The notes: generated by a model not told the origin, from the letters alone. Positions 16,734-51,284 are shown, counted from the first letter of the stretch. The stretch: DNA of 64,000 nt from Octopus sinensis (GCF_006345805.1 NW_021832714.1:40005-104004); one strand, 5' to 3'. Made by a program: numbers and translations.

Positions 16734-16848
16734 ATAGAATGGTTGTATACTGTCAATCTAACAAGAACGTGACAGTAGGGGGTACACCACCGCTGTATAT
16801 ACCCTACTGTCACGTTCTTGTTAGATTGACAGTATACAACCATTCTAT
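16734..16848. repeat. Perfect inverted repeat (47-bp arms) between TA tracts
   Basis: 16734-16780 is the reverse complement of 16802-16848. Confidence 0.95.
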
Positions 16849-17053
16849 ACGCCCCACCACCGTACATGTCTCTACGAGAGATTTAGAAATTCAATTTTCT
16901 TTATATATATATATATATATATATATATATATATATATATCATTAATTAATAAATCTTAGGGTAGCAAAAAATTTTTTAGAAAAATTCCTTGCTACCAGT
17001 GGTCTAGCGAGAAAGAAAGATTAGCCAATAGACTATATATCATTCATAGAGAA

Positions 17054-17310
17054 ATACAGTGTACATTTAAACACATAAGAGATGACCATAATGGGACATC
17101 TGACTCACTAGAAAGAGCAGCTAAACTCCAAACCACGAATAGTTGTAATTCTGAAAGGGAATGAAAAATAAAGAAATGGGGTAAATGTTTTTTCATTTTT
17201 CATTCCCTTTCAGAATTACAACTATAAGTGGTTTGGAGTTTAACTGCTCTTTCTAGTGAGTCAGATGTCCCATTATGGTCATCTCTTATGTGTTTAAATG
17301 TACACTGTAT
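17054..17310. repeat. Inverted repeat (about 116-bp arms) abutting (TA)n
   Basis: 17054-17169 versus 17195-17310, few mismatches. Confidence 0.95.
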
Positions 17311-17351
17311 ATATATATATATATATATATATATATATATATATATATATA

Positions 17352-17822
17352 GGGAGAGTTTACGAAAAAAACAAAAGACGAAGACAGGTGGTGTACAAAA
17401 CAAACAGATGTATTAGTATAACGCTCAGGAATAGAAAAAGTCTTTTACGTTTCGAGCCTACGCTCTTCTACAGAAAGGAACACAGAAAAAACAAGGAGAG
17501 AAAAAAATGTGTGTAGTGGCTAACGATCTATCATGGCGACTGCCAGACAGAAGGGTCACACAAAGACCAGAAAATACAGGAAAGTTTAGAAAGTATAAAA
17601 ATAAAGAAATGATAATAATAACAGTTTTACGTAAAGTTCAAAGGTTTCTTGACGTCGTGGTGTATGGCAAGGATTTCTCATCAAGAGTAGAGTCCACGGT
17701 GATCCGTAGGTAGGAGAGGTGCAGCCGGAGGATAAAAGGGTAGATAGAGAGTCGAGTGGAGAAGTTCGTGTGTGGTAAGAAATGACAGGATCAACATGTG
17801 CGGCCACGTGAGCGCGTGCACC
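17352..17822 (-). mobile_element. Long family A pLTR, inverted relative to the adjacent PLE ORF, with hammerhead at 17442-17477
   Basis: Same motif as 9197-9232; joins directly to the Penelope RT on the plus strand. Confidence 0.75.
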
Positions 17823-17829
17823 AATTACC

Positions 17830-19620
17830 CTTATCAGCTCACAAATAAACAAAAACACAGACCAAACTTCAACAAAAGAGAATGGAACGACCTTAACGAA
17901 CTAAAAGATGATAAAACCATAACAATCAAAGAGGCAGACACAGGTAATGCAGTAGTTCTAATAAACACGAAGGATTATAAAAATCTAGTACTATCTCTAT
18001 TAGGGGATGAGGCGTATTACGAAAGGGCCCAACACTATAGACAACAGAAAATAATGAATAATCTCATACCGAGGACACACAGACAAGGATTACGATTACA
18101 TTACCAATTTCAAGTGTAAATCAAGTTTATTCTACGGTATCCCCCAGATCCACAAAAGCAGAAAAATAAACGAGGCATGCAAAGAAGCCAGAGACAATCA
18201 CCAAGGTCCCCTCACCTAATGACCTAAAACTAAGACCAATAATAGCAGGTCCAGCATGCGAAACCCACCGCCTCAGCAACTTCCTAGACACTCCACTCAA
18301 ACACATCAAGAGCTACATAAGGGATGATCTGGACATGCTCAACCACCTCCCAAAAACGGTCAATGAGAAAACCCTACTAGTAGCCTTGGACGTAGTTAAC
18401 CTGTATTCAAACATCCCCCACATTCTAGGAATAGAAGCAATCACATTCTGGTTAGACAACTACACCTATGGATTCCCCTCTCGCATAAAAAAAGAACCCA
18501 TAAGAGAAGGACTAAGATTTATCCTAGGGAACAATTATTTTATATTCAATAATGACTACTTCCGGCAAAAATTGGGGACAGCAATGGGAACACGAACTGC
18601 ACCTTCTTTTGCGAACCTGGTAAAGGGCTATCTCGAAATTAAAGTATACCAGAAAACACTCGAGAAATATGAAAACCCCTTTTCCACCTACATTCAAAAC
18701 AACTGGAAAAGATATCTCGATGACTGCTTCATCCTCTGGAATGACAATGTAGAAAAACTTAATGAATTCAAAACACTTCTAAATGGAATAAATTAAAACC
18801 TCCAATTTACGATAGAGTATAACCAGGAACAACTGCCGTTTTTAGAAATTCTTATTAGGAAAGTCGGGAACAAAATAGAGACAAATATCTATTACAAACC
18901 CACGGACTCGAAACAGTACCTGCCGTTTAATTCTTGCCACCCGAGACACAACAGGATGAATATCCCCTTTAGTTTAGTCATAAGAATATGCACAATAGTA
19001 TACCCGTTATACACGACTCCAAGAAGTAAAAACTACACTCATCAATAGGAATTACCCGCAATCCTTAATCAACAATACGATCCAACGAGTCCTTAATTTC
19101 AATACACAAGAACTTAGGCAACCAAGACCAAAGAAGGAAGAAAAATTGAAAACCCTGCCTTACATCTCCACACACAACCCACATAAAAATGAGGCCTTCA
19201 ACGCTATACTCCATAGAACAGCTCTACTCAAGAGGGACCCAAAGATGAATCAAATCCTCCAAACACACACCATCATCAAAAGTAAGAGACAGCCAAAATC
19301 AATGAAGAGGATTTTAACCCAGGCCAAATTAGAATCAACAATAACCACAAAGCCGACAGTAAAAATGTGTGGGAGGCCAAACTGTGGGATCTGTATCAAC
19401 ATAATAGAAGGATCAGAATACCGAATTGAACAAGGCCATAATGTTACCATAAAAACTAACGCTACATGTGCATCGGAGAATTTGATTTACTTAGTTACAT
19501 GCTCGGGATGCAAACGTCAATATATTGGACACACAAAAAACAGCCTACGTCAGAGGATGGCGGTGCACAAATCCCAAATTAGAATTCCGGAATACAGGAA
19601 AGTCCATTTCTGTGAAGATC
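17830..19620 (+). pseudogene. Penelope-like element RT plus GIY-YIG endonuclease (Neptune-type), frameshifted
   Basis: IKEADTGNAVV, RPIIAGP, ALDVVNLYSNIP, GTAMGTRTAPSFANL, WKRYLDDCF, YYKPTDSKQYL, linker CGRPNCGIC, NLIYLVTC..QYIGHT..LRQRM..H. Confidence 0.95.
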
Positions 19621-20459
19621 TCAGGGGAGATAACTTTTCGACGACTGTTATTGTATGTACATGTTAAAGTAATTTGTAAATTGGCGACTCATTTCGAATG
19701 TAAACAAAAATATTTGAAAGTTTACAAAAGAGAACTTGAAAGGAATTGCCAATTTGCAATTATTTTTAGCTTTATTTTTCTTTTATATAGCAAATGTCTT
19801 AATTTCCACGATGCTACCTTCAATTAACTACATCATGCTGTTGAGAAATGACAACAGAAATCTATAATAACGATATTTGATAATCGACATTTAAGCATTT
19901 GCTTACTCGTTTCATTCGCTCAGGAGATTAAAGTTTAATTGTGTTCATTCCTGATTTTTTTTATTCCATATTATTCATTCCCGCAGTTATGTGTCGAAGC
20001 AAAAGATCATCGTATTGTTTCCAAAACAACCATCAAATTTGTTTGTGTGCGTGTGTGTGAGTAAGTGTGTGTGCATGCGTGCATGTGTGCGTGTGCGTGC
20101 GTGAGTACGTGAGCTTCTATTGTTTAAAATCAACAAAGAGGGTAATTTTTAATTTTTCCATTTTGTTTTCACATACGGCAAGTTTCCTCTCGGATTCATT
20201 GTTGAAGTTTTTTCATATTCTTATCAAAGAAGACAGTAGATTTTCTACTCTTAACAGTAACAATGGAATATATATAATAATATATATATATATATATAAT
20301 ATATATATATTATATATATATATATATATATATATATATATATATATATATATATATATATATATATATATATATATATATATTATGTATGTATGTATGT
20401 ATGTATATATATATATATATATATATATATATATATAATATATATATATATATATAATA

Positions 20460-49649: not shown

Positions 49650-49835
49650 GACGTCATAAGTGGGTTGATGACGTAAAACAGTGGATCGGTAAACCATTAT
49701 AGGAACCACTTAGTAGGAACTCTCTGAGACTGGCCGCAGGGATGAAATAGTAGCAGAAATGTCACAAGAAGTCGTTAGTTGACTATCTTTGGGGAATTGA
49801 GAGATAAAAGGTCGCAGCTTAAACATGGACACGGA
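49650..49835 (+). pseudogene. RTE LINE extreme 3' end
   Basis: RHKWVDDVKQWIG and VTRSR motifs. Confidence 0.5.
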
Positions 49836-50199
49836 TATACACACATACACACATACGCACACACACACACACACACACACACACAACACACACACACACA
49901 CAAACACACACACACATACACACACACACACAAATTACTAACCTGTACACACCTACGCACCCAGGCACTCACTATTTTTCTTTCGTTTTTTAAACACTTA
50001 CACCTACACACAGCTACTTTCGCATTTAAGCAACTGTCTTCTACTTGTTTCAGTCATTTGACTATCTATCTATCTATCTATCTATCTATCTATCTATCTA
50101 TCTATCTATCTATCTATCTATCTATCTATCTATCTATATATCTATCTATCTATCTATCTATATATATATATATATATATATATATATAATATATATATT

Positions 50200-50383
50200 C
50201 AAAATGTGACCGCGTGTGTACTGTTGGAGTCTTTCCTTCCTTGGATCTTCCTTTTCCTATGTTTCTGACGAAGAGATCCGCTCGAAACGTAAATCCCCCT
50301 TCTTTCTTTCCTTTCCTGAGCGTCCAATAACACTATACTTGTTCCACGTCCTCACGTGTTGTGTTTTCATGTTTAGATTAACT
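50200..50383 (+). mobile_element. Family B pLTR module with hammerhead at 50261-50294
   Basis: GTTT-CTGACGA-A-GAG-ATCCG-CTC-GAA-ACGT-A-AAT; TA tracts on both sides. Confidence 0.75.
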
Positions 50384-50535
50384 ATATATATATATATATA
50401 TATATATATATATATATATATATATATATAAAATTCAGGGTGAATACTTGATAACTGTAAGCACCTGTATATGCCAGTTAGTGGTGTAGGTGATAGGGTA
50501 TATTTATCAAAAGAAAACAGGATGCAAAGGATTTA

Positions 50536-50622
50536 GCGGTACATATGTTTCTGGCTTTATTAGACGGTTTATACCAATGCATAATTGATGTAATATGTAT
50601 GTCAATAGCCTTCTTCAGCCGC
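50536..50622 (-). ncRNA. Type I hammerhead with 60-nt stem II (mirror copy)
   Basis: Reverse complement of 50907-50993. Confidence 0.8.
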
Positions 50623-50906
50623 GCACAATTACTACTCCAAGGACATGTATTACATTATAAGTTTGAGAAAAAGACGAGTTTCGTTGGGGATGCAAATCCT
50701 CATAGTCGCATACAGCAGAGCGAGACACCAAAACAAAAACAAAGCGTCCATACCGTTTTTCACTCGATATAGAATGAGGAGGTTGTTTGTTTTTGTTTTG
50801 GTGTCTCGCTCTGCTGTATGCGACTATGAGGATTTGCATCCCCAACGAAACTCGTCTTTTTCCCAAACTTATAATGTAATACATGTCCTTGGAGTAGTAA
50901 TTGTGC

Positions 50907-50993
50907 GCGGCTGAAGAAGGCTATTGACATACATATTACATCAATTATGCATTGGTATAAACCGTCTAATAAAGCCAGAAACATATGTACCGC
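50907..50993 (+). ncRNA. Type I hammerhead with 60-nt stem II
   Basis: GCGG-CTGAAGA-AGGCT-ATT-GAC..GTC-T-AAT-AA-AGCC-A-GAA-ACATATGT-A-CCGC; predicted cleavage after 50989. Confidence 0.8.
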
Positions 50994-51284
50994 TAAATCC
51001 TTTGCATCCTGTTTTTCTTTTGATATAATATATATATATATATATATATAACCCCTATCTCAATTTGTATATATATATATATATATATATATATATAACA
51101 CATATATATATATATATATATATATAACACATATATATGTATAGAGAAGACGGTAGGTCTCATAACTGGAGGCTTGAGCCAAATGCTTGTAAAAAGGGGT
51201 TCCACTGAAGATACTCAAGAAGCCAGTCGATGATATAAAACCGGGAAATGGATTAAGTTTACGTAGCACTATTCCATTCTTTTG

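Follow-up and report, generated by a model that had tools for sequence, protein, structure and literature searches.

Lopsided palindromes set in TA repeats of an Octopus sinensis genomic region, probably truncated insertions of Penelope-like elements

We have analyzed a stretch of 64,000 nucleotides from Octopus sinensis (GCF_006345805.1 NW_021832714.1:40005-104004), referred to below as the window; positions are counted from its first letter, and all counts of copies, relatives and repeats are within it. Its G+C content is 38% and simple repeats are abundant, with about 100 TA runs of at least 10 nt that merge into 59 clusters. Six lopsided palindromes (E1 to E6) are set in these TA repeats, each with a short arm, a spacer and a long arm that continues into a tail. 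The original prediction, made from the sequence, had reported all six and had ascribed them to the inverted pseudo-long terminal repeats (pLTRs) of Penelope-like elements (PLEs); alignment found every one of them in place, with the predicted coordinates right within about 2 nt. The limits of arms, spacers and tails, taken from pairwise alignment, are the following:

16734-16780, minus strand (from geometry only): E1 short arm, adjoining the TA tract 16659-16733
16781-16801, no strand assigned: E1 spacer, 21 nt, with a small inner stem
16802-16901, plus strand: E1 long arm (16802-16848) and 53-nt tail (16849-16901), then TA tract 16902-16940
16941-17176, minus strand: E2 long arm (17054-17176) and 113-nt tail (16941-17053) that contains a 17-bp hairpin
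17177-17187, no strand assigned: E2 spacer, 11 nt
17188-17310, plus strand: E2 short arm, entering the TA tract 17308-17351
24993-25685, minus strand: E3 long arm, with a 77-nt tail (24993-25069), a pLTR-like part (25070-25338) and a simple-repeat-rich part (25339-25685)
25123-25085, minus strand: hammerhead-like motif of the E3 long arm, within its pLTR-like part (custom scan)
25686-26947, plus strand: E3 spacer (1262 nt), host-like and TA/TG-rich, its strand skew being that of the short arm
26948-27535, plus strand: E3 short arm, with a hammerhead-like motif at 27482-27520, then TA tract 27536-27561
48273-48424, minus strand: E4 short arm, with a hammerhead-like motif at 48405-48372, adjoining a TA tract that ends at 48276
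48425-48436, no strand assigned: E4 spacer, 12 nt
48437-48666, plus strand: E4 long arm (48437-48586) and 80-nt tail (48587-48666)
50431-50743, minus strand: E5 long arm (50505-50743) and 74-nt tail (50431-50504), with a motif at 50618-50540, next to TA tract 50383-50430
50744-50785, no strand assigned: E5 spacer, 42 nt
50786-51025, plus strand: E5 short arm, with a hammerhead-like motif at 50911-50989, then a TA tract
28862-29082, minus strand: E6 long arm, with its tail and a 73-nt spacer that is part of this arm; 33-35 bp deletion at 28929/28930
29083-29180, plus strand: E6 short arm, whose end falls within a degenerate hammerhead-like core, then TA tract 29181-29190
24640-24939, plus strand: solo relative of E6, about 84% identical, ending at a TA tract; the alignment runs through the E6 spacer
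29856-29958, minus strand: close solo relative of E6 with an undeleted tail, also ending at a TA tract

The two arms are identical in E1 (47/47) and match at 238/239 positions in E5, at 267/269 in the unique part of E3 and at 118/123 in E2, where there are five substitutions; those of E4 have 147 matches, one substitution and six one-base indels. E6, predicted as a less clean sixth case, is real and carries a deletion. Its aligned arms (28930-29009 and 29083-29162) match at 74 of 80 positions with five substitutions, the short arm continues to 29180, and the long arm has lost some 33-35 bp across the point where the short arm ends; its tail of about 78 nt was measured on the solo relative at 29856-29958. 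We rejected A-to-I editing as the origin of the differences between arms, the substitutions being too few and mixed. E1 to E5 are mutually unrelated and each is single-copy (E4 has only two weak matches of 24-39 nt), and all five are bounded by TA and asymmetric, as expected from the claim that unrelated sequences share one geometry. The inner junctions of E2 (17188-17203) and E4 (48431-48446) contain tandem duplications of 7-8 nt that could be scars of slip-priming or native repeats.

An unbiased seed scan of the masked window for local inverted clusters (at least 8 seeds, within 3 kb) returned 20 of them. The inner gap was below 100 nt in five, which were E1, E2, E4, E5 and E6; thus all the inverted repeats with such a short spacer are TA-bounded and asymmetric, and E3, spanning 2.5 kb, is the sixth. 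The other 14 corresponded to arrays resembling short interspersed elements (SINE-like, 8), an element of the terminal inverted repeat (TIR) type (2), a 20-bp match (1) and pairs of separate PLE ends (3), and the lopsided TA-bounded geometry appeared in none of them. The names SINE, LINE (long interspersed element) and TIR are presumptive here, given by eye. For a random interval of the same span, the probability of having its ends within 6 nt and within 120 nt of a TA tract was 0.0004-0.003 for each of E1 to E5. Similar palindromes were not equally frequent in other sequence, with none at the recognisably non-PLE TA flanks of the window. Several inverted pairs were discarded as members: 33908-34617, 56313-59453, 9112-10672, and 16000-16180 with 17352-17532, which are tail-to-tail. 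The first of these served as a control; it is an old inverted repeat with flush ends and arms 69-84% alike, located at least 422 nt from any TA tract, and looks like a TIR DNA transposon or a miniature inverted-repeat transposable element (MITE).

Three of the hairpins, E3 to E5, bear what is predicted to be the mark of a PLE pLTR, type-I hammerhead motifs facing outward. They were detected with a custom type-I scanner that was relaxed after inspection of the sequence, and we therefore call them hammerhead-like. The strict version gave three matches in the window and the relaxed one 12 scoring at least 9, compared with a mean of 0.05 and a maximum of 1 in 300 block shuffles. Five of the 12 lie within these hairpins, in both arms of E3 and E5 and in one of the two arms of E4 (the copy in the long arm, 48456-48490, is missed by the scan and contains small insertions), and all read outward. 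Their 3' ends face the TA flanks, so the arms of E3 to E5 are placed head-to-head; for E6 this orientation comes from its solo relatives and for E1 and E2 it is assumed. In single-strand folding, the motifs of E3 and E5 formed a three-way junction with an unpaired core. E5 has an extra base after A9, and E4 and E5 have a short or palindromic stem III, as in the hammerheads that PMC4209133 describes, in the part consulted, from the pLTRs of all the PLEs examined there (position 9 is followed by an additional base, and helix III is palindromic and short). By eye, the stem III layout of E3 resembles that of Hydra-clade entries in File S2 of PMC8557442. E6 has only a degenerate hammerhead-like core. 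The distance from the cut in the motif to the 3' end is 92, 176 and 109 nt in E3, E4 and E5, so E1 (121 nt including the spacer) may simply be too short to have one, and E2 (247 nt) could derive from a ribozyme-less Naiad or from some family whose end is longer. The arms, spacers and tails gave no match to 122 PLE proteins or to terminal profiles, which is expected for 3' remnants. A search against Pfam in 7 frames gave no accepted match in the arms (a weak one to DksA_N, E 0.054, was rejected), one frame of E2 gave none with phmmer against 1.84 billion representatives, a search of phage DNA with E5 was also negative, and a comparison by eye of E1 and E2 with the 3' ends of Naiad_Obim, Naiad_Ovul and Naiad_Omin, as given in the published material consulted, showed no match. 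The prediction that the hairpins are devoid of open reading frames (ORFs) is in line with the lack of protein or profile matches in the arms. We consider a PLE origin very likely for E3 to E5 and likely for E6, and we lean towards it for E1 and E2, which fit by geometry only. The identification as inverted PLE pLTRs therefore stands for three cases and probably for a fourth, and lacks a PLE marker in E1 and E2.

The other seven motifs belong to four ends similar to a family that we call A and to three other solo ends, with cores at 20632, 29583 and 58287. The four family-A motifs (three copies and a relative) require a non-canonical core. Nine solo PLE-like 3' ends of family A and its relatives were found, at 2340-2480, 8907-9104, 9105-9302, 10541-10680, 16000-16180, 17352-17547, 35794-35954, 47348-47490 and 50229-50382, most of them about 140-200 nt long; eight are at TA-rich runs, and the ninth adjoins another copy in tandem. 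Further solo ends are 28161-28604 and 29192-29812 on the plus strand and 20480-21087 and 58100-58290 on the minus strand, whose hammerhead-like motifs are clean and lie at 28336, 29583, 20632 and 58287, respectively. The one at 20480-21087 includes a partial direct tandem (107 bp, 95%), like a direct pLTR.

One arm had been predicted to run about 50-110 bp further than the other, and a one-sided extension was measured in all six cases, with tails of 53, 113, 77, 80, 74 and about 78 nt from E1 to E6. Four of the six fall within 7 nt (74-80), with P = 0.0016 for uniform cut points, a value for which the 7-nt window was picked post hoc and the E6 tail was measured on its relative. The short arms end on an alternating T/A run shared with the long arm (with the relative in E6), of 3, 3, 4, 4, 3 and 2 nt; the null mean is about 1.2, and a sum of at least 19 has P = 2.5e-4 against random cut points. 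Cleavage by the ribozyme was rejected as the step that sets the ends, since the distance from the cut to the end of the short arm varies (15, 99 and 36 nt in E3, E4 and E5). A stem-loop common to the tails was also rejected; clear structure was limited to that of E2 (z -3.5), the other five having values from -1.85 to -0.07. The spacers measure 21, 11, 1262, 12, 42 and 73 nt from E1 to E6, i.e., 11-73 nt in five of the six. That of E6 belongs to the tailed arm, as shown by its alignment to the solo relative 24640-24939, and this is what a snap-back predicts. In E3 the GC skew is +0.61 in the spacer, +0.81 in the short arm and -0.81 in the long arm, and the skew of the spacer has the sign of the tail-less arm in all seven bins, being weakest in the last. 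The nine solo family-A-like copies all end at a homologous position, and the family of E6 has three end points.

Our analysis indicates that each structure is probably a single PLE insertion in (TA)n, dead on arrival and heavily truncated at 5', made of a pLTR end and its inverted copy, and that the insertions most likely come from several unrelated PLE families. The flanks, the geometry of the arms, the orientation of E3 to E6 and the junction matches are seen directly, and from them we propose the following steps. The GIY-YIG endonuclease would cut (TA)n, the published target preference, here seen as the flanks, and the cut end would serve as primer for reverse transcription, which would start on the RNA at the future end of the tail. 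Synthesis would halt after 100-700 nt, and the 3' end of the product, as the short loops of five cases suggest, would snap back and be elongated with the antisense cDNA as template, so that the second arm is formed. Copying would end 50-115 nt before the primer junction, often at about 75-80 nt, perhaps where the protein is still bound, and the new end would be joined to the other TA end at a TAT, TATA or AT microhomology; the match itself is present in the sequence, and its role may be this one. We tentatively favor such a snap-back in cis because of the short loops and the E6 spacer, on the understanding that it would require a block some 75 nt before the primer and, for E3, a later deletion of the center or trimming of the tail. 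A jump in trans would leave the same loop, given that two cDNAs of one family share their sequence. Self-priming, a step of the original prediction, is already proposed in the Discussion of PMC3846280, in the part consulted, and in its simple form it does not account for E3. The hairpins are most likely inert insertion scars, with no function implied.

A number of observations weigh against this account. The scanner is of our own design and was loosened after the sequence had been viewed, the E4 motif region does not adopt a hammerhead fold at minimum energy, and the folds of seven motifs are no stabler than those of shuffled sequences (z -1.05 to +1.35). When one arm from each of E3, E4 and E5 was scanned with Rfam, no hammerhead was found, and there was none among the 150 of 190 window-wide Rfam matches listed, a scan by E-value that was dominated by microRNA models on simple repeats. 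E1 and E2 have neither a motif in the custom scan nor a protein match, and no arm could be linked to a PLE ORF by tblastn with 122 PLE proteins or by N- and C-terminal profiles. At four of the six junctions the phase of the T/A run is shifted by one base relative to the tract, and such slips are common in the TA tracts of the window. The E3 spacer continues the tail-less arm, so that the tailed arm was not copied from it unless the center was deleted or the tail trimmed. Finally, the solo family-A ends cluster (by eye) at about 140-200 nt, and short loops are therefore possible without a snap-back in cis.

The last two points bear on a different route by which the same elements could have produced the hairpins. 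A dimeric PLE protein would cut both strands of (TA)n, with one end priming at the end of the RNA tail. The other would start some 75 nt upstream, at a UA-rich site inside another RNA molecule or another repeat, and the two antisense cDNAs would be joined by a jump of one 3' end. We see this as possible, with odds only slightly below those of the cis route. In the consulted part of PMC11167929, the Anolis PLE protein, a predicted dimer, cleaves the two strands in vitro and extends them, and there are two start sites separated by an interval that equals the tail. With two primers the TA match at the short end is explained as priming, the spacer may belong to either arm (tailed in E6, tail-less in E3), which suits E3 better than the cis route, and the tail may be at either end, as published (PMC8557442, part consulted). 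At three sites the short arm of E6 matches neither the long arm nor the solo relative, which points the same way, as does the grouping of solo 5' ends in a family, a pattern that makes short loops possible without folding in cis. A neighboring layout (17352-19616) also looks two-primed, if its pieces are one element, although 17352-17790 could not be tied to the ORF by the terminal-profile search. On the other side, five of the six loops are only 11-73 nt long, the nine solo family-A-like copies have a single type of end, and the element studied in vitro is a Poseidon whose start sites were reported, in the part consulted, to be non-homologous to the cut DNA.

The remaining explanations do without a PLE-made inverted copy or without a PLE. 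A break at a fragile (TA)n followed by host repair, by snap-back or templated insertion, could have added the inverted arm to a solo truncated PLE insertion. Microhomology-mediated end joining would in principle give the same geometry and microhomology, and E3 has host-like simple-repeat DNA in both arms. We regard this as quite unlikely, since no hairpin was found at TA-adjacent SINE-like or other recognisably non-PLE stretches, the ribozyme motif is present in three of the six and, in degenerate form, in a fourth, the tail sizes are narrow, and the tail-less arm of E3 could not have served as template for the tailed one; besides, inverted pLTRs with target-site duplications have been published as insertion products (PMC3846280, part consulted). 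Fold-back chimeras at TA tracts, from sequencing, amplification or assembly, would agree with the arm differences of E3 to E5, mostly one-base indels of the kind typical of long-read error, and with the near-identity of the arms in E1 and E5. An artefact of this kind is very improbable. It would be centered on the tract, and the centers of the palindromes have no TA tract; two switches would be needed in each case; the arms differ by five substitutions each in E2 and E6, and in E6 also by the 33-35 bp deletion; and both orientation and content are biased to ribozyme-bearing ends. Hardly credible is a MITE or foldback DNA transposon with long terminal inverted repeats inserted at TA, in spite of the long inverted arms, the lack of ORF and the TA flanks. 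Flush ends are found in none of the six, there is no common terminal motif, ribozyme motifs are inside the arms, solo one-armed relatives exist, and the true TIR-type element of the window, that at 33908-34617, is flush and far from TA tracts.

The architecture is already known and these are additional cases. The following comparisons refer to the parts of the cited papers that were consulted. The endonuclease-bearing PLEs of Adineta vaga (Pen2/Pen2a) and the Naiad, Neptune and Poseidon groups (PMC3846280; PMC8557442) have the same head-to-head repeat with a one-sided extension, AT or (TA)n targets, a proposed self-priming and host DNA captured beside the pLTRs. PMC8557442 describes an inverted 5'-truncated copy with a tail of 30-40 bp at either end and a (TA)n bias, lists in its supplement octopus Naiad and Hydra families with (TA)n preference and gives the CxxxxCxxC linker as a Neptune/Nematis feature, and PMC8969392 offers the same PLE features as hints for curation. 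The asymmetry found here is thus real and not new, corresponding to the PLE tail of PMC3846280, PMC8557442 and PMC11167929. Unlike those systems, the octopus hairpins have no ORF between the arms, their tails (53-113 nt) exceed the published 30-40 nt, their short ends lie on TA microhomologies, and a target-site duplication cannot be read inside the TA tracts. The dual minimal hammerheads of Schistosoma (PMC4209133) are ORF-less opposite-strand pairs, 100-700 bp apart and ascribed to truncated PLEs, similar to E4 (about 50 nt between cores) and E5 (about 290 nt), and no analysis of arm asymmetry, flanks or junctions was seen in those sections. PAc, the Anolis Poseidon of PMC11167929, shares the cleavage of AT-rich DNA, ends that lie beyond the ribozyme, on its 3' side, and that its cut does not determine (ribozyme cleavage is not required in vitro), and a tail that is the interval between the two end points, or start sites of reverse transcription; it differs in that the octopus families are probably not Poseidon, its start sites are without target homology and inversion is not modelled in those sections. 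The non-LTR retrozymes (bioRxiv 10.64898/2026.07.22.740005) are likewise ORF-less, derived from PLE pLTRs and provided with a type-I hammerhead, and they occur as direct tandem arrays or monomers, whereas the hairpins are inverted and single-copy with no sign of unit amplification. Among the 150 of 182 tandem rows listed, and in the direct-repeat list, there was no tandem array over the motifs, and the comparison of direct and inverted repeats showed no whole hairpin recurring in the window; the predicted "hairpin elements" are ORF-less indeed, and their status as a mobile unit is unsupported. Twin priming in L1 produces a 5' inversion in which priming at an internal site, microhomologous to the target, sets the outer end of the inverted piece; these inversions do not duplicate sequence, and here both arms carry the same one. 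The literature search, which covered few subscription papers, gave no description of these octopus cases. PMC13282606 reports 31 recently active Penelope-like families in O. vulgaris (part consulted), and the words "palindrom" and "hairpin" were not found in its main text. What is new in the window (n=6) are the longer tails, the TA-matched ends of the short arms and ends that are not set by ribozyme cleavage.

The formation of inverted pLTRs and of the tail is stated as unresolved in the consulted parts of PMC8557442 and PMC11167929. With six cases in 64 kb, the whole genome would be expected to have very many, in numbers sufficient to separate cis snap-back from the two-primer route by the ownership of the spacer and the ends of the short arms, and a cheap genome-wide test of the mechanism of PLE integration is the main value of these structures. 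A more daring reading, that we consider rather unlikely, is that across unrelated TA-targeting octopus PLE families the tail would act as a ruler of constant length, about 75-80 nt, imposed by the protein-RNA complex, the tail-less end being made by a second TA target end that pairs with an internal TA motif. If so, the genome would be a very large record of two-ended PLE integration, able to settle how inverted pLTRs are formed and including the trans-mobilisation of kilobases of host simple-repeat DNA (E3). Such palindromes are also open to mis-annotation as MITEs or microRNA hairpins; the top one among the 150 of 190 Rfam matches listed was a below-threshold microRNA model on the E5 loop. 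Octopuses edit their RNA heavily. In such an animal the hairpins, if transcribed, would yield long double-stranded RNA.

Half a kilobase from E2 there is a remnant of the kind of enzyme that could make such insertions, its parentage of E1 to E6 being only conjectural:

17793-19616, plus strand: broken ORF of a Neptune-type PLE, with reverse transcriptase (RT), CxxxxCxxC linker and GIY-YIG domain (protein and profile matches, translation)

It covers residues ~90-706 of RT/GIY-YIG proteins of about 760 residues, the closest being predictions from Octopus bimaculoides with 75-81% identity; in Pfam, RVT_1 was below the curated cut-off and GIY-YIG above it. This piece, cut at both ends and with no TA tract at 19616, is joined directly to an inverted family-A PLE 3' end that extends from 17352 to about 17790, in which the C-terminus of the endonuclease was not found by the terminal-profile search. 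Provided that the inverted end and the ORF piece are one element, 17352-19616 would be an inversion of the twin-priming type. PLE remnants form chains split by TA tracts at 16000-19616, 24592-27561, 28106-29970 and 47330-51130, a pattern compatible with insertions that recurred in the same microsatellite zones. A second, more divergent RT fragment of PLE type, from the PLE protein search, and LINE-like remnants, so labelled by eye from translations, were found at 61477-61951 (plus strand), 7297-7797 (minus strand), 30491-31020 and 39856-41077 (minus strand). Another SINE-like feature is an abundant family that contains internal tandem units (about 183 bp) and is present at 3449-4333, 14198-14407, 31236-31449, 51285-52009, 56313-56828, 58854-59453 and 60633-60868; its arrays at 56313 and 58854 face one another, 2 kb apart. 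The window also contains a 47-bp minisatellite (42657-43568) with 19.5 copies and 96% matches.

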